This document shows, piece after piece, positions 1,661 through 30,648 of a stretch of DNA of 64,000 nucleotides (the first letter of the stretch is position 1; the number at the start of each line of letters is the position of its first letter). This DNA comes from Sphagnum compactum (taxonomy: Eukaryota), in assembly GCA_965153455.1 (NCBI GenBank), contig OZ234493.1, forward strand, positions 31,114,213-31,178,212, in the 5' to 3' direction. Position numbers and translations under genes: made by a program. The notes beneath the pieces were generated by a model. It was not told the origin of the DNA and made no database searches. It worked only from the letters and a program-made list of their open reading frames with translations.

Positions 1661-1813
1661 ATGTTGTCATGCCCGTATGCATGGTTTCATACATGAGGTC
1701 GTTTATGGGCATGCCATTCATGCCTTTTAGGGTTAATGTACGCTCTTAGGGTTAGTGTACGTTCTTAAGTTACTGTACATTATTAAGTGTTTAGGGTTTC
1801 AACTTATTGGCAA

Positions 1814-1825
1814 CTATATAAAAGG
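1814..1825 (+). promoter_or_regulatory. TATA-box-like motif in the 5' terminal region of the retroelement
   Basis: CTATATAAAAGG followed by a pyrimidine-rich stretch, as is typical of LTR promoters. Confidence 0.35.
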
Positions 1826-2492
1826 CAAAGCCCTTCCCTTCTCTTGTTAGTTTTTCTAGAATTCCTTTGTCACGGAAAGTTTTCTCCATAATAGATTGGA
1901 TTTCTAGATGCTCACAACGGCCATTACACGACCACCGTTTACATACACTTCTTTTCTTTCCTTCTTTGCAACTCAATTTTAGAAAAACTATTCTCTATCA
2001 TTTAATGTTAAAAGCGGCAAATTTTTTACACATTTGAGTTCTTGAATTTATTTTTGCTACTAGTGTTGTTATTGCTAGGGTTGTTGTTGCTGTTGTTACG
2101 GCTGCTGGAAGGAGCTTGTGCTGTTACACCTCTACCAACCAAGGAGCTTGGAAAAGCGAGATCAAAGGGGGGAGTGATGTATTCTGGACCAGGTTTCAAA
2201 GTTGTTTTTTTTTCTCTCTTTCTTTTTTTCTCTCTCGTGTAGAGACATAGGAGGTTGAAGTTGCTGGAGCCAAGCGTTGCAATGAGTAAAAAAAAAAATT
2301 GCATCTACAACACCACGATCTATAGTGCAGCGAGCTGTAGCCCGGCGTTCGTAGCATTGCCACCCACCATCACTTCGAAGTTCACGGTCACTTCACAGCG
2401 CTGTGGCTGTCGTGTCGCTTCACGTTTGCCATCGTTGTCGAGCTCACGGACACCTCACAGCGCCGTGGCGCTCGTAGCACCGTCCGTCCATA

Positions 2493-2870
2493 GACTTTCG
2501 TCAGACTTCTATCGGACATTTGTCGAACTTTCGTTGGACATCAGTCGGATTTTCATCGGATGTTTATCAGATTGTCATCAGACTTCCGTCTGACTTTCGG
2601 TCGACTTCCATTTGTCGAACTGTCATCTGACTTCCGGCCAACATCCGTTCGATTTCCAGCCGACTTCCAGTCAACTTTTGGCCAACTTCCGCCGACGTCC
2701 GTCCGATTTCCGGCCGACATCCGATTAACTTCCGTCCGACTTCCGTTCGACTTCCGTCTATGGACTTCTGCCCACCGACTTCTGTCTATGAACTTCCATC
2801 CGACTTCTGTCTATGGATTTCCATCCACCAACATCCATCCACAAACGTCCATCCATCGACGTCTGTCTGT
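2493..2870 (+). repeat. Degenerate CG-rich tandem array, about 25 x 11 bp (consensus GACTTCCGTCC), grading into about 14-bp units
   Basis: Units such as gactttcgtca, gacttccgtct, gacttccggcc, gatttccggcc, aacttccgtcc, gacttccgttc in 11-bp register, just upstream of gag. Confidence 0.85.
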
Positions 2871-2947
2871 CGCCGTTAATCCCCGTATCCAATACCATAT
2901 TCTTCAAACTATATTTAGTGCTCTATATTTCTACAAAATTTTGGAGC

Positions 2948-4692
2948 ATGGGACAACACCATTCCTCAAATGATGAGAGCACTACCGCTCAACCAGAGCT
3001 AAAGTATCAGCTACGAAGTAACACACAATCATTTGAGCCGATTTCTTGAGCTCACGATCTTCACGACGGTACCATCAAGTGTCTATAATGCCATCGTCAT
3101 CCAGTACAACTCCTACCAGGAATTCAGGTTTAGGTTACACTACATCAACGATACATCAGAATCCGTTTGGAAAGGTCAATCAGTGGGTTACACCTGCGGC
3201 TGCACCAGCTTTCACACCATCACCTTATATTCCGCTGCAAGCCGTTACCTCTACACCCATATACACCATGGAGGTCAGCAGTTCCTTTGGGAGAATTGAG
3301 AAGTTTAGCGGAAGGCTAGATACCATTTCTTTGAAGGAGTTCAAGGCAACTTTCTCAACTGTGGTTTGTGAATTGGAGTTCAAGTATGGCGTTCATTACA
3401 CCGAAGCATTCGCATTCAAACAACTGGCCCGTTATGTGCACTATGAGGCATTGGATGTCTATGAGCAACATTTTCTGAGGATTTTGGGTGTCACCTAGAT
3501 CCCCAATCTACCTTATGCCATAGCCATCGCCACCGCCTCTCCAGTTACACTGCAATCTACCATTGCACATCATGGGACTATGCCCAATAATCCAGATCCG
3601 GTACCTATTTTATTAAACCTTTTTCCTCAACAACTCATTGCTACTACCATAAACATTCCTCCCACCATTGATGCACCAGCTTTTGTTGATCTAGTGGGGG
3701 AATTCTTTCGAATTCTTGAGCTGGAATTTTCGATAAATAGTTCTCAAAATTTTCTACAGCTCGCCACTTTCTTTCGGCAGAAGGATGAAACCCTCAAGAT
3801 GCTCTACAGAAGGCTTCTCAAGCTCAAAGAGGATACTGAGAGCATTACAGACGTGGAAGTTGCCCATTGGTATCTTTGTTTGTTGGAAGGTACTCCGACA
3901 TTCCATGCGCAGGTTTTGCAACGGGTTTTTGTAGAATTTGGAGACTCGTACACTTTGTTGGATGTGTACAACATTTCTGAAAAGCTAGAATTGGCTCATG
4001 CACACTATGAGGCCAATACTATGAGGCCTCCATCACGTTCAAGGCCTCATCCTCCACCAGTTGCGCCAACCAGATCATCACATTCTTCTTCAAGGGCGAA
4101 AGCAATGCACTTGGCTGCACCCATCCTACCTTCTTGCAACTACTGTGGCAATCCTGCCCACAAAGCTAATGAATGCAACATTCCTTCCGAGGATCTCCTT
4201 TGTGATTATTGTGGGAAAGAGGGACATCAAGAAATTGTTTATTTTGTCAAGTTCCCGGAACGGAAACAACTCCAATTACCACGACAAAATTTGCCAGCAT
4301 CTTTCGTTGCCCCTCAACCAAAAGCTAAGGCACCTCAGCCTTCCACTCAGGCTTTCCCCACCAAGGGTAATTCCAATAATAATGCTAAGAAGAAAGAACA
4401 CAAGGATGACAAAAGGGAGGCGCTTCAAGCCCATGTTGCTCAAGTTCAAACTTTGCAAAATGAACTCGAATCATTCAGGACTCAGCTTGCTAATCTAAAA
4501 GGCAAGTCTGCCCAACCAGCTAATCATGCCCAACTTGTACACGGTTCAGGATCATGGGAGGGACCTCCTAGGTCATTCTATGGCCTCCCACATGATGCCA
4601 TGGTTAGGGAATATGTTCTTTCTAGTGCACACAATTCTAGTCTCACACTAGAATTTGCCACTTCTTTTTGCCCTTCCTACTTCGCGACATAA
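2948..4692 (+). pseudogene. gag: gag with two zinc knuckles (disrupted)
   Basis: Likely ATG at 2948 (MGQHHS), frameshift near 3046, stop at 3496. CNYCGNPAHKANEC is a perfect CX2CX4HX4C; CDYCGKEGHQEIVY is a second knuckle with the last C changed to Y. Confidence 0.85.
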
Positions 4693-5399
4693 AAAGCCAG
4701 TGTGGCACCCAAAGTTTCTACCACTAGGCTGCCATTAGGCAAGTAATTTAGACTGATGGACTCGCATCTGGTTCAAGTCCTATTACCAAGGCTAGAGGAG
4801 CTCGAGTAGTCATGTCATAATCTTTTCGTCCTCTCAACACGGAAGAAGAACGCACCTTGTTGGCGAAGGGGGAAGAGACTACTACACCACAAGTTGCTAG
4901 GGCATCAAATTCTCATGTCCCAAAAGTACATGTACATTAGGAAACACACAATTTTCCACTGATCAGCTTATGGAGTGCCAACTTCAAATGCGTGAAGTGG
5001 CGCAAAAGCTTATGAATACACCATTGTTTAGTTTTCAAGATTTGAAGCTAAGCACCAGGGACATAATTACAATATTAAAGGATACCCTGAACACTACATC
5101 AGGCCCTATGCCAATCCCTGATCCACATGCTACAGGGGTCCCATCCAACACCTTGGAGAAACATTCAATTGGTTCACGTGTTGTAGATGGCATTCGTAAT
5201 TTGGTCATTAGTTCTAGCATGGCTAAACTAATGGGCTTTCTTACCTTTGATTCTACATTCACATATTAGAAGGGAGCTAAGAACACCTCACTTGTGGATT
5301 TGTTACTCAGCAAAGGCATTGTGGATAGCCATTCTCTCCACAAAGTTTCACACTCATTTCCGAAGGTGGTGCCTAATGAGAGAACTTCCATCGCCACCG

Positions 5400-5780
5400 G
5401 AATTGCCATTGTTGACAATACTAAATCAGCAATCTAGGTGGGAGGACATACACCCAGAGTGGTACTTCTTGATACAGGTGCCCAACCAGTGATTCTTCGA
5501 GTTCAATTCACCAAGAAGATGGGCATGCTTGACTTCAAACTATAAAAATTTATGTGACAAATTCGCACCACTAGTGGGAGCGTAGAGGAGGTATTTGGGG
5601 AGAGATCAGATTTGATTGCACTTAACTTCAATGAAGGTACAGATCAAGAGCTTTGCCTACTGGTCAGATGTTTAATCACCAATGCCACCAGTTACGATGT
5701 GTTCATTGGGCAAGAAGCCCTCTTTCCACCAGGTTTCACAATTAACAACTGGTTCGAGCATGCATACAACCGAATGGATT
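5400..5780 (+). pseudogene. Retroviral-type aspartic protease domain (disrupted)
   Basis: VVLLDTGAQPVIL with catalytic DTG at 5471, and YDVFIGQEAL near 5693 (C-terminal hydrophobic-G motif); interrupted by stops. Confidence 0.85.
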
Positions 5781-6120
5781 AGGAGACTGATGGCCACCAT
5801 CTGGGATACATACCCCTTGATTTACATGGGAACCAGAGTTCTATGGCTCACCATTATATGCTCAAGGAAGCACACACAATTTCCTACATCCAACAAACTA
5901 GCCACGAGTGGATAGAGGGAGATGAAGAGGAGACAGCTTACGCCCAAACTACTAAAAGGTTCAAGATGGTCCTACTAACATTCAACATGGACCAGAGGTT
6001 TTACAGAAGTTCAAAGCAGCCCACGAACCCTTGGTGAAAGGTTTATCTAGTTTTGAGAACATGGAGAGCCATGGCGAACTAATTACGCCAGTACTTCATG
6101 AGCTAATCACCTGAACACCG

Positions 6121-7060
6121 CCTAAGGAGGGGATTACATTACTAGAGCTCTTTGGTGGTATTGGTACAAGTCTCGAAGCCCTACTATAGTCAGGGATGGT
6201 GGTTCGGAGATATTTCTGCGTAGACATTGATCCTAATGCAAGGCAAGTGGCAGCATCGAGAATGATGGAGTTCACAACCATATTTCCACAACAGTTTGCA
6301 ACCACCGCATGGAAGGCCAGTTTCACTTTCTTGCCCTCTAACATACAACTAATTCAGAAGAGGCATATGGAATTACTCGGCCCTGTGGACCTCATCATTT
6401 CAGGTTGGGAGTGTCAAGGATTTTCAGCGGCTGGATTTAGAAAAGGCTTGAGTGACACAAGATCCGGTCTCTTCACGGACATGGTACGATTAATCACCTG
6501 GGCTCAATCCATTTCCCCTACGCTTGGTTATGTAATTGAGAACACCCCTTCTCAGCTTGACCAGAAGGAGAAAATCCAGGAGCAGTACACGCTAGTCAAA
6601 CATTACCTTGGAGAGCTGTTCTTATTCGATGCGGCACAATGCGGCTCCTATGCGCACCGGCTACGCAACTAGTGGACCAACCTTGCACCACTCTTAGTTC
6701 TGCAGTTGGCTCTTAGATACACCATCAGAGACCCCAACCTACAGGTTTTTCACATATTGGATGATCAAAGCTCCTGCCAACCAGTTACAAGGCAAAAAAA
6801 ACCTCCTTGGTTTCCTGCGAACATAATAGGAAAACCAAGAGGTGCTTGGCCCACCTTTGTCTCCTTCCCAGGAGCACACGCCTTTCAGGTAGATGGACCA
6901 GGTTTGGTGTATCGTCATGCTTCAGCCACTTGGGATGAACTAAGCCTAGAAGAAAGAAAAAGGGCTATGGGGTTCCAAACTGGCATTACTAGTCACACCA
7001 AGGTGACTAGAATGGAACGTAACGCTCTACTGGGGAGAGGCATGGACCTGAACTCCCTTA
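6121..7060 (+). pseudogene. C5 cytosine DNA methyltransferase domain inside pol
   Basis: One frame, canonical motif order: I LLELFGGIG (6139), II CVDIDPNA, IV VDLIISGWECQGFSAAG (Cys at 6412), V GLSDTRSGLF, VI YVIENT, VIII DAAQCGSYAHRLRN*WTN, IX ELSLEERKRAMGF, X RNALLGRGMD. In-frame TAG stops at 6187 and 6670. Confidence 0.93.
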
Positions 7061-7399
7061 CATGGTTATTGGTAACCTGTGTACTCTTTCAAATGTACAC
7101 AACACCAACACTGATTCAATCAGCTTTGAACTCTAGCGATGTAACTACATGGCACCCCGACCAAATACACTTGCCTATCTTCAACACTCTACATTTCACT
7201 CTTAGTGTTGGGGGGGAGGAGGTACCATGTAATTTGACTCAAATTATTTCTGATACACCTGGAGGTACATCAACTTCTGAAGAAACAATTACAACCTTCT
7301 ACGAATCTGCGTAGTTGGATAGTGGAGAACCCAATACACCAGGTTCTTCAGACACACTTTCCAATTCCATTCCATGCATTTCCAACTACCCTTTCGTTA

Positions 7400-8330
7400 C
7401 GGGGAACCAGCTCACCAAGAAGGAGAGAGCCCTAGTCACGGACTTACTAATTAAGTATGAGAATGTGTTTGCAATCTCAATGAAAGACTTAAACAGGTGT
7501 AAAACCATGCAGTTTTCTATAGACCTTACAGATGAACACCCATCTATCGGAGGAGGCATAGGTTGAGCAAGCATGAGTGGGAAACGATAGATGAAAGATG
7601 CAAAGAACTCCATGAGGCTGGTCTCATTCAGCCATCAAGTTCTGATTTTGCAGCCGCTACAATAATGCTAGCAAAGAAGGATTTAGTTGGATTATGGATT
7701 GAGAAAAGGATGTGCGGGGATTATAGGCCTTTGAACCTGGTTACACTTCAGGACAGGTACCCCATGCCCATCCTTGAAGAACTGTTTGATAACATTAGAG
7801 ACTCAAACATCTTCACAATTGTGGATCTCAGGCAAGGCTTCAACCAGATTGTGCTTGTTGCGAAGGATCGTAAGAAAACGACATTCCATGGAAACAACAA
7901 GTTGTGGGAATGGCTTGTGATGCCTTTTGGATTGAAGAATGCACCTGTCTTCTTTCTGGGAGTCATGGACCAGGTTTTCGAAGGGGCAAATTTCCTGAAA
8001 TGCTACATAAATGACGTCCTAGTGCATAGCAAGGGACTCATGTAGCACTTGGCTCATCTTGAGGAGTTATTCAAGAGGCTCCACGAAGTCAATATGAAGA
8101 TCCATCCTAAAAGTGTGAGTTTGCTGTCACTTCAATAATCTACCTTGGACACAAAATTTTGCCAAATGGTATTATGGCTCATTGGGCCAAAATAGTAGCC
8201 ATTTTGGAAATGCCCAATCCTACTACTGTTCTCACACTTTGAGGAGCTTCATCGGACTATGTAATTACTACAGGATTTATGTCGAAGACTTTAGTACTAT
8301 TGCTCATCCTCTATGCATTGTTAAAGAAGG
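7400..8330 (+). pseudogene. Gypsy reverse transcriptase (disrupted)
   Basis: RMCGDYRPLN, DRYPMP, DLRQGFNQI, MPFGLKNAP, YINDVLV (YIDD with D>N), LRSFIGLCNYYR; stops and frameshifts present. Confidence 0.95.
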
Positions 8331-8399
8331 ATGTTGCTTGGACATGAATGAAGAGGCTCAAGAAGCTTTCAACACACTCAAGGAAAAGCTTTCAAAGTT

Positions 8400-8800
8400 C
8401 CCCATTCTAAGAAGACCTGATTTCAGCAAAGGCTTTATTCGACACACTGACTAGAGTGCTTTTGGTATTGGTGTTATTATTGGCCAACTTGATGAGGAAG
8501 GCAAGGAATATGTTATCGCCTATGCATCCTGAAGCAAAAACAAGGCTGAGAGCAACTACTCTTCATACGAGGGGGAATGTCTTGTTGTTGTATGCGCCGT
8601 CATACATTTCAGGCCCTATCTTTATGGCACCGAATTCACTTTGTATACCGACCACCAGCCTATGAAGTGGTTGATGACCAATAACAAGCTTACTGGTAAG
8701 TTAGCTCGTTGGGCGCTTATACTTCAGGAGTACGAGTTCAAGGTTATTCACTAACCTGGTATTACACATCAGTATGCGGATACCATGTCGCGGAGACCCC
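8400..8800 (+). pseudogene. RNase H domain (disrupted)
   Basis: HTD*SAFGIG, YVIAYAS*S, NYSSYEGEC, FRPYLYG, LYTDHQP, LARWALILQEYEF, ADTMSR. Confidence 0.92.
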
Positions 8801-9099
8801 TCACTACCTCTGAAGATTTTTTAGAAGTCAGGCAAGACTTCGACCAGATTCTAGCAGTACATGTATCTTGTGCATCTAATTATCTTGCACTATTGCAATG
8901 TAACCTGGTTGAGCATCCCATTGTGGATATATGGGAGGCCCTGGACAGTCTGAGGTTTCTTTAACATGGGGAATTCCCTCCCCAAGTTACATCAAATCAT
9001 CGGGATGGCATACAACAACAGTCCAAACGCTACTCATGGAGGGACAGTCACCTCGTCCAATGTTTACCACAAGGCGACAGAGTGGTTCCTCCACCACAT

Positions 9100-9980
9100 G
9101 AACGGCTTAGTATTATTCAAAAGGTACACTCAGAGCTTGGACACTTTGGAGTTTAGCGTACTTATAGCCTTCTCGCTCCTCATTACCATTGGAGAGGTAT
9201 GTATGCTCAAGTCTGAGACATCATTGCTAGGTGTGAACAATGTGATAGAGTGAGAACTTCTTTCTCCTCTTGACAGCTCACGCTTTCTCCACTCCCTATT
9301 CAGGGCATGTTCTATTGCTGGTCATGTGATTTAATTGGAGAGTTACCATAGACCTCCAAGGGTAATGTTTACATCATGATTGTGATTGAGCATTTTTCAA
9401 AGTGGGTCGAACTTGTTGCACTATCGGACAAGTCATCACACAGCACCAGCCAGGCTTTCTTACAACAGGTCCTAAGTAGGTTTAGGGCTTGTGCTGAGTG
9501 CCTTATTAATCAAGGATCAGAATTCAGAGGAGAATTCCAAAACCTATTTGACCATGCTCTCATTGACCATTGCCAGACTTCAAGGGATCATCCCTAAGTA
9601 GATGGCCTTGTAGAAAGGATGGTTCAGACATGTAAGAAGGGACTTCGGAAGATTTGCTTCACTAAGAACAAAGAGGATTGGGACCTAGCCCTACCTTACA
9701 TCGCCATGGGTTATAAGATGTCCAAACATGCCTTTTTGTCTCATTTCTTTCCTTACTCTCTATTTTTTGGGAGACATCCCATTCCACCCTCTTCCATTGC
9801 TGCTCAAATGGACCAGGTTGTGGACTTGGACTCCCCAGCCGCCTGGGCTAGGATCATCGCAGAGAGGGCTGTTCTATTCAAGAGGGTTATGCCCATGGCC
9901 ATGGAGAACTTATCCATTACACATCATCGAAACACCTTATGGTATGCACACACACGAGGTGGCAGTTATAAACCTAAGGT
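9100..9980 (+). pseudogene. Integrase (HHCC zinc finger and catalytic core, disrupted)
   Basis: VHSELGHFG ... CEQCDR (HHCC), WSCDLIG, EHFSKWVEL, NQGSEF, DHP*VDGLVERMVQTCK, WDLALP, LFFGRHP. Confidence 0.92.
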
Positions 9981-10101
9981 GTGTTGGAGTTGGAAGGAGC
10001 TGACGAACGCACAATTCGGGATCACTCCAAAAATTATGCACCACGCCACCTGCTGAACTTAGATCCTACCATTATCACGTCAACTTGGACTTGACTATCC
10101 A

Positions 10102-10236
10102 TGTCAGGTATGTCAAAGGATAGACGATGTTGATTAGATGCTACTTTGTGATAATTATAATGGTGAATAACATCTATTCTGCCTCAAGCCGAAACTCACT
10201 CAAGTTCTCGTCGGCATTTGGTATTGTTCATCATGT
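10102..10236 (+). pseudogene. PHD finger at the integrase C-terminus (disrupted)
   Basis: CQVCQRIDDVD*MLLCDNYNGE*HLFCLKPKLTQVLVGIWYCSSC has C4HC3 spacing with the MLLCD and WYC signatures; one C>Y and two stops. It is missed by the ORF track. Confidence 0.88.
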
Positions 10237-11116
10237 TTTCCTGCAGCACTTGGATTTCTACTCGGACCATGCGTCAGGCGTCCGTTGAACTTTCATATAC
10301 ATGAGAATTTCATCTCAGCCCCCTTTTGTGCATTGTATGTATATGTGCGTGCATATCTTTTTGATTGATTAGTTTCTACCTTTGACTGGTTTTTATCTTT
10401 TTGTTTAGTAGAGTAATTATGGATTTACACCCTTATGACACTGTACGTCATGACACTACATGTTACGACAATATTGTTTTGATTTTTTCTAAAGATTTAA
10501 CATTTTTATGATGGGTGGTGGCGAATTATAACATGGAAAAGGTTGGGTAGAAATGTATAAATATGATATTGGTTTTTATATACTACAAACCTTAAGGCAC
10601 ACCAAGCTAAATGAGAAAGATGATGATGATAAGTATATCATGGGAGTCCATAAAATCAAGAAAGAAAATCCATCAAAAAAAACATTCATAGTTGATGGGG
10701 CGATGAAGATCATTAGATATACTAACTTCTTCACACCTTCTAAAATGATCTTGCCAAGAAACTAATTAAAGACCAAAATCCAGAAAGATATATAACAAAC
10801 AATACTTCTATGATTGAAACACAATCAAAAGATAACACTTCATTGAAAGAGAGCACCATAGAAATTCAATTATAGTCAAAACAATTATAGCAATGGATTG
10901 GTTTCAATCGAGATGCTGAAGAAGATGTGAGAGCAGACCAAACATATTCAAATTTGGTAAATTTTATTACCATCGGACAAGCTAAAAAGTTGATGAGATA
11001 GAATATCTGATATGGATGAAATTGGGAAAATTATAATAAGAGTCTTGAAAAGTGTATTGAACCAAAGTGTTAACATTGTTTAAAGAAAAGGCTTGAGGAA
11101 TTAACCATACCATTAT

Positions 11117-11354
11117 CACTATGAGAAAATTGTGTCTCTTGCAACTTGTCCAATGCAACTAAAAAGTGTTTGATAGAACTAGATTGCAACTAAAAAGTGT
11201 TTGATAGAACTAGATTACAACTAAAAAGTGTTTGATAGAATTAGATTCCAACTAAAAAGTGTTTGATAGAATTAGATTACAACTAAAAAATGTTTGATAG
11301 AACTAGATTACAACGAGATAAACAAGTTGCAATGGACATGATTTTCTCATAATG
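11117..11354. mobile_element. Non-autonomous CACTA (En/Spm) element
   Basis: Starts CACTATGAGAAAAT and ends ATTTTCTCATAATG; 33-bp TIRs match at 28/33; 3-bp TSD TAT at 11114-11116 and 11355-11357. Confidence 0.85.
11156..11314 (+). repeat. 31-bp tandem repeat x5
   Basis: CAACTAAAAAGTGTTTGATAGAACTAGATT(A/G/C) at 11156, 11187, 11218, 11249 and 11280, with no spacers. Confidence 0.95.
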
Positions 11355-14300
11355 TATATGAGAAAATCCTTAAACATGTCCATAAATGTACTAAAGTTTG
11401 GGCTTTATAAAATGGGGTATTAAACATACAAACGACAAAACTGGGAAAATATAGGAGGCGGTTACCAATATTGGTATGCATGTTAACTTTTACATTTATG
11501 AGGAGACTAGTAGCAGTACATAAATATAAAAGTTTCAAGGAAGCATTAGAACCTCAAATACCTATTATGTCCCTTCTCAAAAAATGGATACCATATGATA
11601 TGTTGGCTTTTATAAATGAGAAATGGGGAAAATTAGCTTGTTGTATTCCAAGAAGGTGGGTAGTATATTGGCCCCCATTCATGACTGAGAAAGAAAGAAT
11701 AGCTTCACTAACATAATATAAGAAAATGATTGAAACCATTCTAAACAAGGAATGATAGAGCTAGACAAAATAGACTTGGGATTTTGCAAGTTATGCAATG
11801 TTGTAAAGGTAAATCCTTGCATATTTACACAACAATTGGGAGAATATAGAATGGCCAAGCCAAAAGGTAGGTTGAGGAACATGAATGTGTTGGGTGCAAA
11901 ATGTATAATTGTGTATCCTAATTTATTCACCTTATGAGAACAAGAAGTTGTTAAGTTGTTACTGATAACCAAATTGTATAATGATCGAAATGAGTGTAGA
12001 CTAGAGGAGAGGTAAGTAATGTCTTTGATCCTTAGAAAAAGTGAATAGTTAAAACAAAGCATTACAAAAGAGACAACAGAAGAATTGTTGAGAACAAATA
12101 TCCATTATAGATGGACAATTACTACCTACCTATATAAACCAAGGAATGCACCAAAGAAGGAAGGATGGAATGAGTTGGTCGATAGATTCAAAGGATTACA
12201 TGTTCACGTCCAAGAGTTGATTTTGGAAAAACTACATGGAGGCACCCAAGTATGGTGTGTACAACATTGTACGTTAATGATCAATTCATCATAACTAACT
12301 AAATATCGACATTGGTTATCAGTATTGGCATGTTTGCCAACATTGATACCACTTGAACAAATAACAGCTACTTATCATCGAATAATTGTCCAAGATGACA
12401 AAGAATTCATCAAACCCAACATCAATGCATTGGTAGAAAAGTGGATGTCATGTGACATGTTGTGGATCCAACCATGCTTCTATGAAAACTATGTCATGAA
12501 ATGAAGAGGCAACCCGAGTTATCAACCTTTCTATGACATAGACAAGGAACCTTTACATCTTTATTCTTACAAAAAATTAACCCATAAATGTAAAGAAAGA
12601 TGAAGATTTATCAACTTCAAACTCATGATGGATAATGCAAGGAAGGCTAAAAATGACAAACTATGAGATGCAAGACGAACTCAAAGGGAAGGAACTAGAT
12701 AATTGTTCTGTAAATCAAAAGACCTTATAGATTTCTTAAGAAGGTGGAAGAAAGCAAGTCCATTTGACTATGTGATAGGATATGAATAATTGAGCCCCAA
12801 AAGGGAAGAATTAATCATATCAACAACATGTACGATGATCAATACCATTAAAGGATAAAATGTGGACCACCTAGTAATGAAAGAGCCAATTCAATAGTTG
12901 GAGAATTGATGGATATTTTGTTGCCTATCTGACCACGCTCGTTAAATAACTTTTTGACAACTTGGGTGTGGAATTCTATAGATAAGCCTTTGTTAGTAGA
13001 GGATGAACCAGCACATTCAATCACTTTCAATTTGGGTTTCCTCAAGTTGGATACATTGGTAGAAAATAATAAAGAGGAAAGGGCTACATGAGCTAAATTG
13101 ACTAGCTCAAACGGAAGCTTACTAATCTCACCAGAAAGGGGAAGTGATATTGTAACATTACCAAATGTGCAAACCTAGGCACATAATTGGACCACTAGTA
13201 AACATGGCTCTAGCGATAGGCAATGTGTTAAGGATACAACTGCCTAAATATCATGATGGAGATGAAATTGTCACACATCCGACAATTCACATGTCTGTGT
13301 GACCAATGGCGAAAACAATGATGTTCATAAGTTTCAATATTTTCCAAATACTCTAAAAGGAAAAGTTGTCGATTAGTTTGTTTGTTTCAAAACTGTAAAC
13401 CTTGCAACAACATGGCCATCGATATAACAAAATTTCATTTGCATTTTAATGAAGTACACAATGAAGGTCAAACATTAGCAGTAATCCAGAATATCAAGCA
13501 AAAGAGGCATGAAACTGTTGAAGACTAATATATGACATGTTCCTACAATTGGTAGTTGTCATCTTGAATCAGCTAGATAATGTATACTTAAGGGAGAGTT
13601 TTCATGAAGGGTTACACTCAAGATTAAAGATGGCAATCTTGGGAATGCCATAAGCAATGATCATTGAAGTTGTTAATTAAGCAAAAACAATGGAGGGAGC
13701 TGATGCCCTCCAAGAAATACTACAACAAGGTCCAGGACAAATTAAAAAGTGAAATGTTTGATTATCATTCTGATGAAAAACCTTGAAAAAAAAAACTAAA
13801 CAACAATTTGACACTTATTGTCGTGGCATTTATTATCATAATTGTTACAATGAAGGTCATTACACTAAGGAATGCAAGTTGTTACAAAAGTTTTGTTGCA
13901 TCTATAAGAACGATGATCATAATATGGATCAATGCACAAGGAAAGACGTGAGCAAACACAAATCTTGAAGGAATGTGCATGTAATGTTGTGTAAGTTGAG
14001 GCAAACGAAGTGGTGCAAACCATGCAATAAGAGTATCTTGGGGCCAATAACTAGAGAAGGTTTGGCAACCAATCAACAATCATGCAAGTTGTTAGGAGGG
14101 AATAACTAGCAAAACAATAGAAGCCAAGGATGGCATAATGGCTGGGGGTGTGCTAACAATTTTATAACAATCAAGGTTATAACAAAAACCAAGGATTTTG
14201 CCCAAACAACAAAATGTTTCTATTGTCTAAAAAAAGGACATGAAAAAAGACTATTTAGTATGAAACATATCTATGAAGAAGAAATGATTAGAATTAAGCC

Positions 14301-16351
14301 CAAAGTGGGAGTAAATGTTGCCATGGTGGACTAGGAACAAACATTGGTGGATGTGTGTGTAACAACTCGGAGCAAGAAGGCTTTCCTCATGGACAAATAA
14401 CAAGGAACACATAGACCAATCCCACTAGAGGATGACAAGTCAAATGGGACAAGTAAAAGACAGTGCATCAAGAAGCATTTGAGGAATTATAGAACATTCA
14501 AGGTCTTGAGGACATTCCGGTGATGGTCTATAGAGAGTTGGTCACCAAATAACCAATTTGTTTGACAAGAACAAGCGACAAGGACAAAAGCTACGAAGAA
14601 CTCAAACAACATACCAGCTAGTAGCAACATGTTGGCAATTAATTCACAAACCAACATGGATCAACCAGAAATCAACACAATGCATACCAAGAAAATAGAC
14701 GAAAACAACAATTTGATAAGTGACCATTAGTTGGGAACCGATTTGTTTAAAGCAATCGTGGAGTTCAAAATGAAGGTCAAGCTAAGGAAATTGTTATAGT
14801 TATGTCCACAACTAAGGAAATTATTAGAAATTTCTTTGGCAAAAATAAAAGGACGGGGAGTAGCAAATGTTTGCAAAGTCACCATGGTGAAGGTTGAAGA
14901 TTTTGATGAAGCCATGCATGTACTTCAAGTAAGGATTGGAAAGTTGGGAGTAAAGGATGTACTACTAGATGGAAGATTTGGGGTTAATATCATCTCTGAA
15001 GAACTTAGAAAGAAGCTAGGGTTGAGGAGGGCCTTAACTAGCCCCTTTCATGGCTTATATGGTTAACCAGAGGAAAGTGCAATCAACTGGACTAATCTGA
15101 AGCTTGAAAATAGACCTAGCAAGGTGTTCATATAAAATCTCAATTAGAATACTAACTATGGAAGAAGGCAAAGAAGCATATTCCATGCTACTTGGAAGAC
15201 CATGACTTAAACAAGCTAGAACTACTCATGATTGGGGTAACAATACCCTGATAATTACCTCTAGGAACACTAAGCACCATCAAAAAGATCAAGCTAAATC
15301 CATCTCAATGACCAGAACACCTAGATGACAGGTATGATGGGGATGGACTTACCAAATAGGATGAAGAGCAACTTTACAAATTTGTACCAAAATTATGGCC
15401 TATGGGAGAAGTGGCCCACAACAAATTATCTTTTTTGCCAAATGTGTTTTGTGGCATGTTACATGCTGACAAAAATATCAAATATCAAGAGCATTTTTAC
15501 CAACATGAACTAGGAGAGGCCTTGATTCTAAACGAGTTGATAGACATCACAATCTGAAACAAGCTGATAGTTGGATGGATTGTGATAGAAGAAGAACAAT
15601 TGATCAAGTTCAACTTGGGAAATGTAGAAGACCTTAAAAATGTACTGATAAGTTCAGCATTGTCAAGGGAGTTGAAACTCTCTTACGAAAAATTACAAAG
15701 ATGTATTAGCTTGGAGTTTCAAGGAACTGAAGGGAATTCCAAAGCAAATTTGTGAACATAAGATTGAATTAATGATTGACACCAAACCAATTAACCAAAA
15801 ACAATATTGAATCAATCCAAATTATGCGTCACCCATAGAAGAGAGGAAACACATCACCATTAGGGCACGACCTTATATTTTACAAAACGACGGTTTACAC
15901 AAGTTAGGACTAGATGGGGTCCTACGACAATGTTTGAATGGACAAGAGGCCCAATGTGTCCTGTCAAAACTCCATGAAGGACCTATTGGAGGGCATTATG
16001 GGATTTACAATACAATACAAAAAAAATGGTTGTAGATTATTGGTGGCCTATGTTACAAAAACAAATAGTTAAAATGTGCCAAACTTATGACATATGCCAA
16101 CAATTTGGACCCTAGAGCATCACAGGAAGGGGACCCTTACGGTCAATATTATCATTTGAACCATTCATGAAATGGGGACTAGATTTCATGGGAACATTCA
16201 AACTAGTGGCAAGATACATCGACAATCAATACAATGTAGTAACAACTAACTACATTACGAAATGGGTGGAAGAAAGAACCTTAAAAAATAATATAACAAA
16301 AAACACTACCAAGTTTTTATATGAACACATCATCATCTGGTTTAGCTGTCC

Positions 16352-19698: not shown

Positions 19699-20733
19699 CA
19701 AGATGGTTAATGCCAATCACACTAATTAGGATGTCATGTTGCTAATGGCATTGTGGGCATATATCAAACATCATACAAGGTCACGACATAACATAAACCC
19801 CTATGAATTGGTTAATGGCACAAAGCCAGTACTAACAGTAGAGTTCTTTATTCCCACCTTTAGAACCCAACGTCAAGTAAAAGAAGATTTGGTTTGGTTG
19901 TGGCAGTTTTCTTGTGAAGATGGAGAATTTAGCCCTAATAGACGAACTTCAATGGGAAGTAGGTGACAACATGGAAACACCTGAAAAGGTGGCCTAAATT
20001 GGACAGAGAAACCTGTCCTGTGTTGCAAGCCAACTGGATGGCCCACAAGGAGAAGAGATGATTGGACAGAGTGTGGCCAGGTTTTGGGCTGTGGGTTCAA
20101 GATCTGAATACGCAAGTCCATTGGGTGTTTGAGAGCCATGTTTATATGGGCTAAGTTTTCGGCACCTGAATTGGGACGTGGTTCCTCCCTCCCTTAACGA
20201 CGGTAGAGGAGGAGGAGGAGGCCGACGAGACGGTCGATGAATGAAGGACACTTTGCTACTTACGTTTTGCTTCAGAAGAAGAGTTGCTGCCGTTGTTTGT
20301 TGCTTCTTCAGGAGAGATTTGGGTCCTTTGCTGATTGCTTCCCAGTCGAGCGTCTCGTTTGTGCCAAGCTTTAGAGCTCTCTCGCGCGCAATTTGGTGCA
20401 GATTTGCGGACGGGAGAGGGTTCATGGTCTCATTAGGTCATATAAATAAACCTTTCCACTTTTCTTTCTTCGATCCCCGGAATTTTGAGTTGTTTCGAGT
20501 CATCGAGAAAGGGATTTTTATTTAGCGGGTTTTTGCGTCTGAGAGAAGAAGAAGAACAACAGGGTGGTTTGAGGCTTGCCCATGATGTTGTTGTGGGATT
20601 TGAAGAGTGTAAAAGCTTTTTTCTAGCTATGGGGTATGGCAATATAATATTTTGAGGAGCTTCTTGGGTGCAGTGGAGAAGGAGGAGGGTGTGCTGCTGC
20701 TGCTGCTGCTGCTGTAAGGGGAACGGATTCGGG

Positions 20734-23700
20734 ATGTCTTCAGTGCAGCTAGCACATGCACTGAAGCGCAAAGTGCAAAACCAGTCACGTTTCTTAACCC
20801 CAAAAAGGTATTCCCTCTTTCCCTGATGTTGTAAGTATGTGATCCACCAGTACTTCTTCATGTGCACAGTGGGAAAATTTTCTGAAACCAACCAACATCT
20901 GCTATTTTTTTTTCTGTTTGAGCAAACTAGGGTTTCCAGTAGCTGGTATGATGAAGGGTTCCACTAGTACATCTTCATGTGTAGCACAGTGAGAAGCTTT
21001 TCTGAAACCAACATCTACTCTTTTTCCCCCCCTGTTTTAGCAAATTAGGGTTTCCAGTAGCTGGCATGATGAAGGAAGGGTTCCAAAGAAGTGGAAATTG
21101 GATATCTTTTTGTGTTTTCTCTTGTAACTTTTCTCTTGTAACTTCTTGGATCTAGCTGTGAAACAAAGTCCTCAAGGTATATATATCCTGGGATATCTTT
21201 GACAATTGTCCTCAACCAGGGTATGGAGGGATTGAAATGATTTGTGTGCCTCATGCTCATTCCAATATCTCAATTTGTGCTAAATTGGGAGTTGTCAATA
21301 GTCAATTTTACAGGTTTTTGAGGCTTTTATAGTTGTAGAGAGTTCTTTGTCTCTTAGATGGTCAGTCTTATTGTCTTTCTGAAAAATAAATGCTACCTTC
21401 TAAAGGTTCTGTTAAAGAGGACTAGAGGGTTGCTCTATGAGGAAAAAATTCTTTTTCGAATTTCAGCATTTGGAGTATTTATTTTTGTTTCTTGGTCCTT
21501 TGTTCTCTGTTTTTGGAATTCTCTGTGGCTGGTTGAAAAAGTGTTAATCTCACTTAGCCTTTTCCTAATCATGAGAATGGAGATTTCTTGATTCTTATGA
21601 GAGATAAATCTTTTTGTGTTTTGCAGGAAAGCGTTGGCAGTTGTAGCTGTGGTGTTATTTGCAGGAGGTGGATTAGCATATAATCACTCCAATCGTCAGA
21701 GACAAAAACCCATCCACCATCCCCTTGCACATGCAGCTGATACAGATGATGGAGAGGAGGTGGCCAGAGTGGCTGCAAAGGGAAGGAGTAGTGGAGTTTT
21801 GCAGAAAGGGAAACAGAAGAGGGGTGGGCTGAAGTCAGTGAAGGTGGTCAGTGCAATCCTTCTGGCACACATGGGGAAGCGAGGCATGGAGAATTTAGTG
21901 TCTTTGGCTGCCATTGCGGTATGAGGCCGGCCCTTTCTACTGTCAGACAACACATGTTTGCTGAAATTATTGAATGTCCTGATGAACTTTGCAAGATTTT
22001 AGTGTCAAGTTTCTGATGCACTCTTTTAACACAAAGTCTCATCTTCTGTTATTTGTATGCTGGTTGTGCACTTTGATTTTGTTTTTGTTTGCATTTTTCT
22101 GTCGGGATGCCCTATTCACTCTTTCTCAGTAATTTTATCTCCACAATTTCAAAGTTGGACATTGGAATATATCATTGTTTTAGTGATTAGGTTTGTAAGC
22201 CAATGAGGTGTGAAAACATGCATAATGTGATGATGATGATGATGGAGCAGGTGTTGAGGACAGCATTGGGGAACAGATTAGCCCGGGTGCAAGGATTTTT
22301 GTTCAGAGCTGCGTTCTTGCGTCGTGTACCCCTCTTCATGCAGTTGATTACGGAAAATCTGGTGTTGTGTCTTCTGCAATCTGTTTTGGTATCAACCACA
22401 AGGTTCCTGACTGGGACTTTAAGTCTATGCTTTCGGAAGATCTTGACTGATCGGGTCCATGCTGATTATTTCCAGGTGGGTTTTAGCTTCTGAAATCCAG
22501 GGAGAGGGAATCTATATACCTTCAGGGATCTCCTCCTTGCCTAATACTGTCAGTAACAAAAAGTGGAAGAATGTATATGTGCTTGTGATTTTCTAGGAGT
22601 GACACAGGCAGGTGGGTGCAGCAAGACAGTGGCCTGAGTTTTTCCTTCTGCTGAATTCTTCTTTTTGGGATCTGTTTTCCAAAAATTCATTGTGTGGACT
22701 AAAACTTTGCTGGCTGTGGCAGAACATGACATATTACAAGATGTCGCATGTGGATCATCGAATCAGCAATGCGGAACAGAGAATAGCCAGTGACATTCCA
22801 AGATTTTGTGCAGAACTTAGTGACCTTATACAGGAGGACATAATGGCCATTTTTGATGCATGTCTCTATACTTGGCGATTATGTAGTTATGCCCATCCCA
22901 AATATGCCTTCAGCATATTGGTATGTGACTTCTTGCTCATTTTGGTGTCAGTTTGATTTGGGTTCTGTTGAGAATTTCTGCTGTGGTACTAGTTGACAGA
23001 TTGGGTCCCTAGGCTATCTGGCAGTTCTTGGTCTCATAATTTTAGCAATGTTTGAAATTCATAGTCCTTGATTGTTTTGCCGCTCATTTGAGGTGTTTTT
23101 GTGGTTTCTAGTTTGGTCCAGGGAAAAAGGATCTAAAATGGGTTCAGTGATGTTCCATGTAGGCTTATGTGTTAGGGGCTGGAGTAATAACGGGGGCCCT
23201 CTCACCACCGTTTGGGAGGCTAATGTCAACTGAGCAGCAGCTGGAAGGGGAGTATAGGCAGCTGCATTCACGAATCCGAACACATTCTGAAAGCATTGCA
23301 TTCTATGGAGGACAAGTGATTGAGGCATCAATCATAAAGCAACGGTTCAAGGCACTTGTAAAGCATCTGGGCAAAGTGCTGCACACACAGTGGTGGTTTG
23401 GCATGATCCAGGACTGTTTCCTGAAATATCTTGGAGCCACTTTTGCTGTTGTCCTCATTATTGGACCCTTCTTTGGAGGCAACTTGAGACCGGATAGTTC
23501 CACACTTGGCCGTGCCAAGATGCTCAGTAATATGCGGTATCACACTAGTGTGATTATCTCCCTGTTCCAGGCCATGGGTACTCTTGCCAGCAGCTCTCGC
23601 CGTCTTTCTCGTGTCAGGTTAGCCTACTTGCACAGCCAATTGAGCATGCTGTTTCAGTCAAAATCAGTACTGTGATCACTGTGTTTTGAAGTGTAACAAT

Positions 23701-26700
23701 GACTCCTTGCATCTTTGTGTGTCCGATTTGCAGTGGGTATGCAGATCGCATTCGTGAGCTTATCATGATAGCAAGAGAGTTGCGAATCGCTGGTGGTAGC
23801 AAGGTTGTTAGTAACAGAGACAGTGACAGCTACTTTGTGGAAGCAAAATACATTGAGTTTGAAGGTGTGAAGGTTAGTTGCTGATTCAGCCTGGTTCATT
23901 TTTGTTTGTGTCAGCTCACTTTGCCATTGTCCGAATTTTAGGTTTGGTTATCAATCTATCAGCATGATGCAGGTAGTAACACCCACAGGCAACATTTTGG
24001 TGGAAGACTTGACATTGAAGGTGGAACAAGGCTCAAATCTTCTTATCACTGGTGTGTCTTTAACCTAACCTTCCAGCTCTCTTAGGAGAATAAATGCATG
24101 CCTGTCATGTGATCTTAGCCTTCTGAAGTGTCCTTCAGTTTGATCTCATTGGGGGCAAACAAAAGTACGGATGTACTATGTGTTTCTTAGTCTGGCTTAT
24201 GTGGATACCTGTTGCAGGACCAAATGGTAGTGGGAAGAGCTCTTTGTTTCGGGTTCTGGGAGGGCTTTGGCCTCTAGTGGCGGGCCGAATTGCCAAACCT
24301 GGAACAGGAGCAGATTTGAGCCATGAAATTTTCTATGTACCTCAGCGACCTTATATGGCAGTCGGAACTTTGCGTGACCAGCTCATTTACCCACTTACTT
24401 CTGCAGAAGAAACAAAGCCACTGACGATCGATGGCATGCGTGAATTGTTGAAAAATGTAGTGTGCCCTTTTTCTCTCCTTTTGTAGGGGTCAGTCACTAT
24501 AGTCGTGGGAAGATGGACAAAGGTGAATTTTTTTGAGTAAGATTTGCAACTTAAAAGGTTTTCTCCATACAACATCATCCCATGTGCAACTCTGCATGTG
24601 ATTGGTAAAATCAGTTCTAGTCTGCAAATTGTCTTTGCTGTTGTTTTGTGGCCAACCTTTGTCAGTGCCCTCTGATGGAGTCAATTATTTTCTCGAGTTT
24701 AGGTGGACCTGGAATACTTGCTTGACCGCTATCCGCTAGAAGAGGAATTGAACTGGGGGGACGAGCTGTCACTCGGAGAGCAGCAGCGCCTTGGCATGGC
24801 TCGTCTCTTCTATCACCGTCCAGCTTTTGCAATCCTGGATGAATGCACCAGTGCTGTCACCACCGACATGGAGCAACGCTTCTGCAACAAAGTGCGCGCA
24901 ATGGGCACATCCTGTGTCACCATCTCTCACCGTCCTGCACTTGTGGCCTTCCATGACACTGTTCTTTCCCTTGATGGTGAGGGTGGCTGGAGTGTTCACT
25001 ACAAAAGGTTGGGACTTAATGTGGGTTTCAATAAGTTCTGAATGTATGCTTTTATCCTGGTTATACATCAGTTCTACAAACCACTAGATTAGGGTTTCAC
25101 ATGGAGTAAAGTCTTAAGAACCTCGGTTTCTCTTTTTTATTGAGTTCAAGAACTGTGACAGTGATTTGAATTTCATTTTTTTTCTTCAGAGAAAACCCAT
25201 TGGAGATCCTTTTGGAGGAGAAGAATGATCATGAAGACGGTGAACTGCAATCAGATTGCAAGTCAGGTGCAATGGTAGTCCAAGAGCATTTTTTGGCCTC
25301 AACAACCAAGGTACCTATTATTACCTTGTGCAGTTACACAATTCCTTTGTATGTTGACCCTCATAGATAATCAATATGGCTGGATGATGTCTACAGTTGC
25401 AATGTTATTCAGGTTGCATTTTTTTTGAGATCAATTTTCTGTTCTGCAATTTGTCTTACTATGGTTTTTTGCAGGACACACATAATGACTCACAAGCAGA
25501 TGATGCATATGTGAGCACTATATTGGCAACATCTCCTCCCCCTGACCCTCTTATGCCTATTCCATTGGTCCCAAGGTTGAAAGCAGAACCTCGAACGACA
25601 CCTGCCCGAGTCAGCTCCTTGTTGAAAATTTTGGTAAGTCTGACCTAGCCACAACCGTATGTGGGTTCATGCTGGGAGTGGCTTGGAAATTGGTAGTTGC
25701 TTACGAAGGAAAACATTTTCACGGGTGTGATTTGTAGGTTTTCTCTCTTATCTTGATTGAGAACTGAGATATCTGGCATCTAACTATCCCTGACACATGT
25801 AGAACTGCCATCTGGAGTTTTGAGCAACAATCAGTTATTCCCAAACCTGCACTAGTTTCTGATTACAGTGAGGACTTCTAGATGTTGTCTTAATAGTCCA
25901 AAGAAAGGGTTTCCGCATCCATGTTACAGATCTGGGTTCAGTTCTGAAGGTGGTCATGGCTATGGGTAGGTACCAACTATATTGGGTAAGCAAGGAGGTC
26001 AGCTCCTGGCTGTGGCACTGCTTGTTGTGAGCCGTACATGGATTTCTGACCGCATTGCAGATCTCAATGGTAAGCTGTTTGTTGAGTGACCATCCTTCTG
26101 TGATAGTGTGATGCTCTTGCTGGTCAGTAGAGGCTATTGTGGTAAAATTTAAAAGCCAGAGTATAGTTGCCCTGACTATGGGTTGATTGGGATTGGCAGG
26201 CACAAGTTTGAAGCACGTTTTGCATCAAGACAAAGTGGCTTTTATTCGTTTAACGGGCATAAGTGTACTGCAGAGTGTTGCCTCTGCCATTGTTGCTCCA
26301 TCACTCAGGTCTTTGAGCACCCACCTCTATTGGATCTCACTCAATTTCCCCTTTACATTTCTCTACAGAGAGCTTGAGCCATAGTTTTGAGACCTGTTGT
26401 GGCAAAATGGAGTGTCTTAGGCATGGCTGGTGCCTTTGATAGCTGACATGGGTGCTCTTTTTCTTGATCAGGAATTTGACTGCTAAGCTAGCTCTAGGTT
26501 GGCGATACCGGTTGACAGAGTCTCTCTCCAAACTGTACTTCCAAAATAATGCATACTATAAGGTCAGATGCCCACACATTTTCAGCTTTCAGAGAATTGC
26601 AAAGGGCCTTATTTAGGGACCACCTTGTAGGTGGTCTCTAAAGCTGCCTTCTCTTCATGCAGCTACAAGTATGATCAAGGTGTTGATACCCAAGGGCTGG

Positions 26701-29700: not shown

Positions 29701-30648
29701 CCATCATCCAAAGTTTGGAATCCTGGATGAATGTACCAAGTAAGTCCCATCTCCTGCACATCATCAAGACACATTTTTTGATTTCAGTAGTGCTGATGTG
29801 CAATTTGGATCACATTGTTCAATGTCTGTATAGTCTTCCCTTCTCTGTATTTCTTCTTCCCTGTTCTGAAGTCACCTATCTGGAGTTTTTCTTTGACTTG
29901 AAAGGAAAGCTTTTTTCACAGGGTTCTGAAACTTTTAGCATTGTGAGTATGGAGATTTACTGATACTCATGAGAGTTTATTTTGATGTTCAAATTGTTGC
30001 TAAAGCATCAGCCTTAGGCATGAAAAGAGGTGTGTCAAATTTGAGAATGTGCCTGATCAGATGCACTGCATCTTTCTGCAGTGCTACAAGTGTGGATGTT
30101 GAGGAGAGTCTTTACAAACGAGCTCAGGCTCTTGGAATTGCTGTTGTCACCATCTCACAGGTTTGCTCAAACCTCATGTATTTTCACAGTTGGTTTTTAT
30201 TTTGGTGTCAGAATATAGCGCATTTGGCACATTTACAGAGCATTTGGCATGGGATTAAAAGTGACAGGGTAGCAGTGTCTTGGCCATGCTACATGCAGCT
30301 ACCCAGCACAATGTACCACATGTACATTTTCCAGGGCTTATATTTATGGTGCTGTAGCTGAGCTGATATGCAAGCTGACAGTCAGTCCTAGAAGCTTTAC
30401 TTTGGAGACAAGTGACTTCTTGTCACCAGGTGTCTATGATCAGCAAGATTGGATGTGCCAGTTGAAGACTTACAGTCCATTTGATGTGTGATCAGAAGAC
30501 CTTGAACCACTTTGAGTCTCAGATGATTTACCTTGTGAAAGTGGTGATGTTTCTGCAGCGTCCAGCATTGATACCTTACCACTCAATGGAGCTCCGCTTG
30601 ATTGATGGTGAAGGAGGTTGGGAGCTACGATCAATCAAGCATGACTGA
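20734..30648 (+). CDS. ABCD1: Peroxisomal full-size ABC transporter, subfamily D (PXA1/COMATOSE/ABCD1-like), 25 exons, about 1377 aa
   Basis: GT-AG exons joining in frame: 20734-20807, 21627-21918, 22251-22475, 22723-22920, 23163-23617, 23734-23872, 23973-24051, 24218-24456, 24703-25007, 25190-25310, 25475-25633, 25970-26069, 26200-26308, 26472-26562, 26811-26935, 27104-27253, 27349-27421, 27595-27775, 27954-28112, 28393-28578, 28842-29105, 29344-29531, 29687-29739, 30082-30160, 30559-30648. Two Walker A (GPNGSGKSS), two [15 protein letters not shown] signatures, ILDECT Walker B, and EAA-like [10 protein letters not shown] / [10 protein letters not shown]. Confidence 0.96.
20845..21085 (+). 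repeat. About 120-bp imperfect tandem duplication in ABCD intron 1
   Basis: TCTTCATGTG..TTTTCTGAAACCAAC..TAGGGTTTCCAGTAGCTGG(T/C)ATGATGAAGG occurs twice in succession. Confidence 0.8.
27826..27862. repeat. Head-to-head plant telomere repeats in an ABCD intron
   Basis: AGGGTTTAGGGTTTAGGGTTTTC followed by TAAACCCTAAACCC. Confidence 0.8.

Follow-up and report, generated by a model that had tools for sequence, protein, structure and literature searches.

Does a retrotransposon of a peat moss carry its own DNA methyltransferase, and is the enzyme a regular part of the element or a stray insertion? The question is raised by a stretch of 64,000 nucleotides (nt) from Sphagnum compactum (assembly GCA_965153455.1, contig OZ234493.1, positions 31,114,213 to 31,178,212 of the forward strand), the whole of which is referred to here as the window. 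A preliminary description, made from the letters of the window alone, had placed an intron-less C5 cytosine methyltransferase (DNMT) domain within the pol region of a Gypsy-type retrotransposon, between the protease (PR) and the reverse transcriptase (RT). The same order was found in the relatives of the element. Judged from these relatives, the methyltransferase belongs to a Gypsy-type pol as an integral component without introns, and it is a trait of the whole family. The family is very probably the land-plant (bryophyte) branch of the streptophyte KnitGypsy-Dnmt3 lineage, known from Klebsormidium nitens (de Mendoza et al., 2018, Nat Commun 9:1341; PMC5890265).

The methyltransferase domain

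By sequence and modelled fold, region 6115-7122 of the window is an unpermuted DNMT3-type C5 cytosine methyltransferase. The translation of window 6040-7566 in frame 1 (509 residues, with X at stops) matched PF00145 (DNA_methylase) with 37.9 bits (E 1.9e-9), the curated cut-off of this family being 22 bits; 34.2 bits were obtained in a long read-through of the window. Motifs I, IV, VI, VIII and X were located in one frame of the plus strand between PR and RT, as had been described (Table 1). The labels I-X come from our own reading of the alignments to DNMT3A, not from a tool, and are presumptive. The cysteine of motif IV, the glutamate of motif VI and the Arg-x-Arg of motif VIII are all present.

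In a phmmer search of PDB the catalytic domain of DNMT3A was the top match (E 2.7e-6). The alignment is colinear and covers query positions 31-216 (N-terminal motifs) and 301-337 (C-terminal motifs); the motif order is therefore unpermuted, as the preliminary description had it. DRM-type enzymes have a circularly permuted order, with motifs VI-X before I-V, and the moss element, in which the motifs run from I to X, differs in this from plant DRM. A profile built from 29 family sequences ranked DNMT3A (2.1e-26), DNMT3B (5.9e-24) and DNMT3C (1.8e-23) highest among PDB entries. Weaker matches were obtained to DRM (6e-16 and 6.5e-12), M.HhaI (1.5e-11) and DNMT2 (7e-5), and no DNMT1 or CMT entry was matched at E <=0.01.

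The predicted structure points the same way. An AlphaFold2 model of the stop-free domain of one relative (locus L002, see below) had a predicted local distance difference test score (pLDDT) of 94.7 and a predicted template modelling score (pTM) of 0.92. When this model was used as a Foldseek query, ranks 1-50 as listed were all DNMT3A/3B/3C catalytic domains, the best row having an E-value of 1.4e-19, a template modelling (TM) score of 0.84 on the target and 21% identity. Homodimer prediction of the domain gave a score of 0.00, which speaks neither for nor against a dimer. Searches of the ESM Atlas returned generic PF00145 clusters only, one of which is mostly Streptophyta.

The window was also scanned with Pfam in the three plus-strand frames of 1801-10802, with stops read through as X. 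In these frames no match to BAH, chromo (PF00385), PWWP or ADD was detected; the absence of a BAH or chromo module had been noted before. A PHD finger (PF00628) is found after the integrase (IN) instead of a chromodomain.

Copies and architecture of the family

A scan of metagenome contigs gave at least 599 pattern matches, and at least 527 stretches were confirmed by tblastn. The best 80 of these (loci L001-L080) show 77-90% amino-acid identity. To determine their architecture, they were searched by tblastn with the gag, PR, DNMT, RT, RNase H (RH), IN and PHD pieces of the window. Of the 71 loci extending 720 nt upstream of the DNMT, 68 have PR on that side (the exceptions being L019, L061 and L064), and of the 59 extending 930 nt downstream, 58 have RT there (all but L019). 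The tBLASTn check for PR-DNMT-RT junctions that had been proposed with the preliminary description thus speaks for a family trait and not for a one-off event. In 22 loci the seven pieces occur together and collinearly, in the order gag-PR-DNMT-RT-RH-IN-PHD. In L002, PR through PHD lie in one frame and gag in another; therefore the ancestral pol was a single frame with the DNMT included.

At the protein level, 272 near-length relatives of the DNMT domain were obtained at E<=1e-3 among 1612 candidates, with identities of up to 88%. The named near relatives are from Sphagnum compactum, S. magellanicum, S. balticum and the liverwort Calypogeia fissa; the Calypogeia fissa protein is 58% identical and has both PR and DNMT matches.

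A contig of 829 nt from a DNA sequencing run, lying over 2113-2941, is identical to the window's copy-specific stretch. In that run the summed word depth was 5,000-10,000 over the coding part of the element and 43-55 over the copy-specific part (2202-2863 of the leader, at single-copy level, against thousands elsewhere). The contrast is not a measure of copy number, but it agrees with a many-copy family. None of the runs contained half or more of the sampled words of window 5400-8100.

Transposons of Chlamydomonas reportedly often have a PHD finger as an accessory domain (PMC8557442). The PHD finger of L002 is intact, and among solved structures its best match was the PHD of WSTF (1.8e-15), followed by those of KMT2D, ATXR5, KDM5D and BAZ2B; CHD4, BAZ2A, UHRF1 and AIRE were among the lower-ranked matches. 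Several of these PHD fingers are readers of histone H3 unmethylated at K4. Because the closest solved PHD fingers include readers with this generally known specificity, the PHD of the element may bind H3, most likely in the form unmethylated at K4.

Deep relatives and phylogeny

An exhaustive search of 1.84 billion cluster representatives produced 2106 matches at E<=1e-3, 651 at <=1e-10 and 218 at <=1e-30. The best 150 are mostly polyproteins of 1000-3400 residues in which the DNMT is internal. Two architectures were observed among the deep relatives: CCHC-PR-DNMT-RT-RH-IN, which is that of the window, and RT-RH-DNMT-IN-PHD.

The two architectures coincide with a division in the phylogeny of the domain. 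In a quick tree of 139 domains, a single branch with a Shimodaira-Hasegawa-like approximate likelihood ratio test (SH-aLRT) support of 98 parts 112 rows (91 RH-DNMT-IN, 21 untyped and 0 PR-DNMT-RT) from 27 rows (17 PR-DNMT-RT, 10 untyped and 0 RH-DNMT-IN). A careful tree of 41 DNMT domains separates a PR-DNMT-RT side (29 rows) from an RH-DNMT-IN side (12 rows) with support of 98/98. The comparison with the Klebsormidium retrotransposon DNMT, proposed earlier as a check, placed the K. nitens protein GAQ93235.1 (P0185) on the window's side of this split, together with proteins of several Closterium strains, Calypogeia and Sphagnum. The K. nitens and Closterium proteins are CCHC-PR-DNMT and the Calypogeia protein is PR-DNMT. 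The moss family and Calypogeia are grouped at 100/100; the tree gives no firm branching order among the moss-liverwort, Klebsormidium and Closterium groups. The other side has Chromochloris zofingiensis and Haematococcus lacustris as its named members. The host ranges of both sides are minimum statements.

The catalytic residues are highly conserved. The cysteine of motif IV, the glutamate of motif VI and the first arginine of motif VIII are invariant in the 139 domains (139/139 each), and the second arginine of motif VIII is present in 137/139. The residue before the catalytic cysteine is Glu in 83/139 and Pro in 47/139. Since the catalytic residues are conserved across deep relatives, it appears that the enzyme has been used in the lineage.

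It is conceivable, and we suggest it with reserve, that all these elements form one ancient Gypsy-like clade with a catalytically conserved DNMT3-like enzyme and often a PHD finger, which would predate the split between chlorophytes and streptophytes. The domain would have moved once within Pol, being RH-DNMT-IN in the clade with chlorophyte members and PR-DNMT-RT in the clade of Klebsormidium, Closterium, liverwort and moss, and would have persisted into land plants, with hundreds of copies in peat-moss genomes. If this is true, a single old capture would stand behind the "independent acquisition" of the K. nitens lineage, and some copies in bryophytes might still be active and write methylation.

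Two groups of polyproteins on the RH-DNMT-IN side may be mentioned separately. One cluster (P0212 and P0318-P0326) has ten members, each of 2487 residues and on ten different contigs; it looks young and is possibly active. Three distant RH-DNMT-IN-PHD polyproteins (P0292, P0294 and P0297) also carry G-patch (PF01585) or chromodomain (PF00385) matches.

Decay and mutation pattern

The window copy is dead. In-frame stops were found at 6112 (TGA), 6187 (TAG) and 6670 (TAG), exactly where they had been reported, and additionally at 7312 (TAG). At least three frame changes are required to read pol; other copies have an extra base at 7535, and single-base length differences occur also at 8108 and elsewhere. 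The RT active site is a YxDD box, and the window has YINDVLV at 8004-8024, with Asn at the place of the first Asp. Because of the stops, the frameshifts and the YIND motif, this copy cannot make the enzyme. L002 is better preserved, having an open stretch of 847 codons from the DNMT into RNase H; stops are still present in it at 9998, 12542 and 13100.

Among loci L001-L080 and window 6115-7122, C>T and G>A account for 74% of the deviations from the column majority, and 203 of 271 stops arose via these changes. Per site and copy, C>T amounts to 0.19 at CG, 0.23 at CHG and 0.07 at CHH, compared with 0.02 for A>G/T>C. This pattern fits the mark expected of long-standing methylation in all three plant contexts, through deamination of methylated cytosines.

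Possible function of the domain

Hosts fight transposons mainly by cytosine methylation; a transposon that brings a de novo methyltransferase of its own is therefore a striking inversion. It could be explained as follows. The DNMT would be made as part of Pol. With S-adenosylmethionine as donor, the enzyme would methylate de novo the element's own new DNA, either as cDNA, in the pre-integration complex or as a fresh insertion. The integrase-PHD end would tether the complex to histone H3 tails, most likely those with unmethylated K4, and the new copy would enter, and stay in, chromatin that resembles ordinary methylated host DNA. According to the preliminary description, the enzyme would be cut from the polyprotein inside the particle and could methylate the cDNA or the insertion site of the element. 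The idea of self-methylation is essentially the one put forward for retrotransposon DNMTs by de Mendoza et al. (2018; PMC5890265). Taken as a whole, bryophyte lineage and mechanism together, we consider this the likely explanation of the locus; this is one blended judgment, which leans on the identity of the family. The particular mechanism, self-methylation of new element DNA combined with PHD tethering, is possible rather than probable.

Several observations weigh against this explanation. The KnitGypsy-Dnmt3 domain gave no detectable methylation in yeast, a result that its authors called inconclusive (PMC5890265). The DNMT region is stop-free in only two of the 80 relatives (L002 and L032), the usual count being 2-6 stops, and a fully intact pol was not seen among the 80. 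The C>T excess at CG, CHG and CHH fits methylation by the host as well as self-methylation. Contigs from RNA libraries (metatranscriptomes) fall on 28 of 30 bins, for example a contig of 703 nt over 6103-6770 with 71 differences; DNA carry-over is possible. These contigs were not counted as expression, since the libraries may hold DNA and the family is a many-copy one.

Constraint inside the moss family was likewise not demonstrated, because the tests for selection failed their out-of-frame controls. The ratio of nonsynonymous to synonymous substitution rates (dN/dS) was calculated by the Nei-Gojobori method (NG86) from 23 non-duplicate copies out of 31 with full-length DNMT and RT matches (253 pairs). 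It was 0.364 for the DNMT, with 0.394 and 0.686 out of frame, and 0.373 for RT, with 0.392 and 0.746 out of frame. These ratios were rejected as evidence of selection, since they are driven by the transition bias (C>T and G>A together, 74%). A contrast of nonsynonymous and synonymous changes between singleton and shared variants (48 DNMT and 26 RT copies, after removal of rows more than 97% alike) gave p=0.00014 in frame and was rejected also, being mirrored out of frame at p=2e-5.

The enzyme might instead act in trans on chromatin, placing methylation near the sites of insertion or at other places in the host genome and shaping local chromatin or damping the element's own transposition to the host's benefit. 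Roles of this kind are listed as open by de Mendoza et al. (2018; PMC5890265). The catalytic conservation of the domain, the histone-reading PHD finger in the same polyprotein and the adjacency of DNMT, IN and PHD in the sister architecture are all in keeping with it. In the window family, however, the DNMT adjoins PR and RT and is distant from IN-PHD, and we regard action in trans as unlikely.

It is quite improbable that the domain methylates RNA (the genomic RNA or a primer) or that it serves the particle in a non-catalytic way, by giving structure or binding nucleic acid. The failure to detect DNA activity of KnitGypsy-Dnmt3 in yeast (PMC5890265) and the replacement of the motif IV proline by Glu in the majority of domains (83/139) could be read in this way. 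In sequence and fold, however, the domain is nearest to DNMT3-type DNA enzymes (2e-26, against 7e-5 for DNMT2), and the invariance of the catalytic Cys, Glu and Arg in 139/139 domains argues against a pseudo-enzyme. That the methyltransferase is a one-off host gene fragment, a nested insertion or an assembly chimera, in favour of which nothing was found except the frame changes on both sides of the domain in the window copy, has practically no probability left and is already refuted by its same place and spacing in 68/71 (PR) and 58/59 (RT) relatives, its single frame with PR and RT in L002, its lack of repeats or duplications of its own, and the same order in the K. nitens, Closterium and Calypogeia proteins.

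Organization of the window element

The features of the window copy are given in Table 1. Pol has the order PR-RT-RH-IN with a DDE (rve) integrase, and the DNMT is inserted between PR and RT. RNase H and the H2C2 and rve parts of the integrase are all in frame 1, RVT_1 is in the third frame and the DTG of the protease is in yet another. The leader contains degenerate tandem repeats of 11, 14, 25 and 54 bp (Tandem Repeats Finder), and its part 2629-2863 consists of degenerate tandem repeats. No tRNA genes were found in the window, and no canonical TGG primer-binding site was visible by eye after repeat A1.

Table 1. Features of the decayed retrotransposon copy and of its methyltransferase domain (positions in the window).
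Feature	Position	Strand	Remark
Element, decayed Ty3/Gypsy-type retrotransposon copy	1665-10470	+	
Putative 4-bp target-site duplication, left, ATGT	1661-1664		Directly before the TGTCATG terminus
Repeat A1, start TGTCATG	1665-1977	+	blastn to both A copies of L002, L008, L034 and L044
Leader, partly copy-specific (2202-2803)	1978-2911	+	Not alignable to relatives
gag, two CCHC knuckles (4135-4176 and 4201-4230)	3037-4692	+	Open reading frames; gag piece matched in relatives
Aspartic protease, DTG at 5471	5402-5782	+	Frame differs from DNMT in the window copy
DNMT3-like C5 cytosine methyltransferase domain, by sequence and model	6115-7122	+	PF00145; internal stops 6187, 6670
Motif I (presumptive label), ELFGGIG	6145-6165	+	
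Motif IV (presumptive label), GWECQGFS	6403-6426	+	Catalytic Cys kept; Glu where DNMT3A has Pro
Motif VI (presumptive label), VIENTP	6532-6549	+	
Motif VIII (presumptive label), AHRLRN	6652-6669	+	
Motif X (presumptive label), LLGRGMDL	7027-7050	+	
Reverse transcriptase, third frame	7536-8111	+	RVT_1 65.3 bits; active site YIND at 8004
RNase H	8347-8733	+	PF17917 113.7 bits, PF17919 96.7 bits
Integrase, H2C2 zinc domain and rve core	9088-9585	+	PF17921 57.1 bits, PF00665 33.8 bits
PHD finger at integrase C-terminus	10096-10236	+	PF00628 25.6 bits
Repeat B, end ...ACGACA	10291-10470	+	blastn to B1 and B2 of relatives
Putative target-site duplication, right, ATAT	10471-10474		Directly after the element

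No pair of long terminal repeats (LTRs) was detected in the window by a gapless repeat search or by self-blastn. This is explained by the repeats of the relatives, which are split, and by the loss of A2-B2 from the window. Of 14 long loci tested, 10 have two A repeats (about 300 nt, 82-92% alike) and nine have two B repeats (about 180 nt); the layout A-coding-B-A-B was observed in 9/14. The window retains one A and one B, and A2-B2 are gone; recombination between B1 and B2 would yield exactly this A...B form. DNA contigs of run X1 show both A>B and B>A joints.

The termini of the element are TG..CA, with A opening as TGTCATG and B closing as ACGACA. Perfect 4-bp target duplications were read in two of three loci (GGTC in L002 and CCAA in L008), and in L034 three of four positions agree. 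The target duplication of the window is weak on its own, since ATGT and ATAT agree at 3/4 positions.

Some further observations concern the repeats and the surroundings. In L002 a run of eight G at 14295-14312, directly before repeat B1 (ATACATGAG), resembles the polypurine tract that precedes a 3' LTR; it is lost in the window. A 31-bp tandem array (5.1 copies, 95% matches) lies at window 11156-11314, about 700 nt past the end of the element. Window 20000-32000 stands out from the AT-rich sequence around it by a raised G+C content (0.41-0.45), a strongly positive GC skew and a negative AT skew; no Pfam match was obtained in the minus-strand read-through of window 22000-32000.

Comparison with known systems

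Among cellular enzymes, DNMT3A, DNMT3B and DNMT3C are the nearest to the moss element in both sequence and fold of the catalytic domain. The moss element differs from them in having no PWWP or ADD, in its low identity to human DNMT3A (about 21%), and in that its lineage often has Glu for Pro before the catalytic cysteine. Chromoviruses share with the moss family a chromatin reader at the C-terminus of the integrase, which probably guides integration; the reader of the moss family is a PHD finger and not a chromodomain. To our knowledge, chromoviruses carry no methyltransferase. Both chromo and PHD domains are present in one distant relative (P0297).

Other retrotransposons with methyltransferases have been described. 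SymbioDIRS-Dnmt3 and SymbioLINE-Dnmt of Symbiodinium are, like the moss element, retrotransposons that bear a DNMT; the DNMT3-related enzyme of SymbioDIRS-Dnmt3 methylates CG de novo in yeast, and the direct repeats of this element are split (PMC5890265). The Symbiodinium elements belong to the tyrosine recombinase or long interspersed nuclear element (LINE) class and to another host kingdom, whereas the moss element has a DDE integrase, TG..CA ends and 4-bp duplications. The EpiLTRs and DAM-LTRs of green algae are Gypsy-like and combine methyltransferase with chromatin-reader domains; their methyltransferases include adenine methyltransferases and a DNMT that is sister to DNMT4 and located at the 3' end of pol (bioRxiv 10.64898/2026.05.21.726589). 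In the same preprint the Gypsy-DNMT3 of streptophytes is treated as a separate acquisition described earlier.

Retrotransposon DNMTs have so far been known from dinoflagellates and one charophyte alga. The bryophyte copies indicate that the streptophyte lineage is not an oddity of Klebsormidium. Bryophytes offer methylomes, mutants and transformation, making the function of a transposon-borne DNMT3 tractable to tests; DNMT3 counts in bryophyte genomes and in moss-associated metagenomes are inflated by transposon copies. No land-plant family had been known to the preliminary description, and our literature search likewise found no description from land plants, although supplements may hold such data. 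A retrotransposon DNMT3 in "streptophytes" is mentioned in PMC12344493 and bioRxiv 10.64898/2026.05.21.726589.

The closest known system is KnitGypsy-Dnmt3. It has in common with the window family a DNMT3-related, unpermuted and intron-less methyltransferase inside a Gypsy-type Pol and the repeat layout A-coding-B-A-B, the published layout being that of a figure legend (PMC5890265). The K. nitens protein GAQ93235.1 lies on the same side of the tree as the moss family and has the same CCHC-PR-DNMT order. The K. nitens enzymes are called "Dnmt3-related" and "a more divergent clade" by de Mendoza et al. (2018; PMC5890265). The differences lie in the hosts, which are land plants in the case of the window family (a moss, with a liverwort relative at 58% identity), and in the number of copies, which is far higher for the moss, with at least 527 metagenome stretches, than the fewer copies described for K. 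nitens in that paper (PMC5890265). The copies of the window family are mostly dead, and the PHD finger after its integrase is a possible further difference. The Gypsy-DNMT3 kind of element has thus been published (PMC5890265), and the window family is a new, land-plant member of it. What is new is a bryophyte branch present in many copies, a single clade of one architecture that unites the elements of K. nitens, Closterium, the liverwort and the moss, a sister architecture whose members include chlorophytes, a PHD finger, and TG..CA ends and 4-bp duplications beside split repeats.

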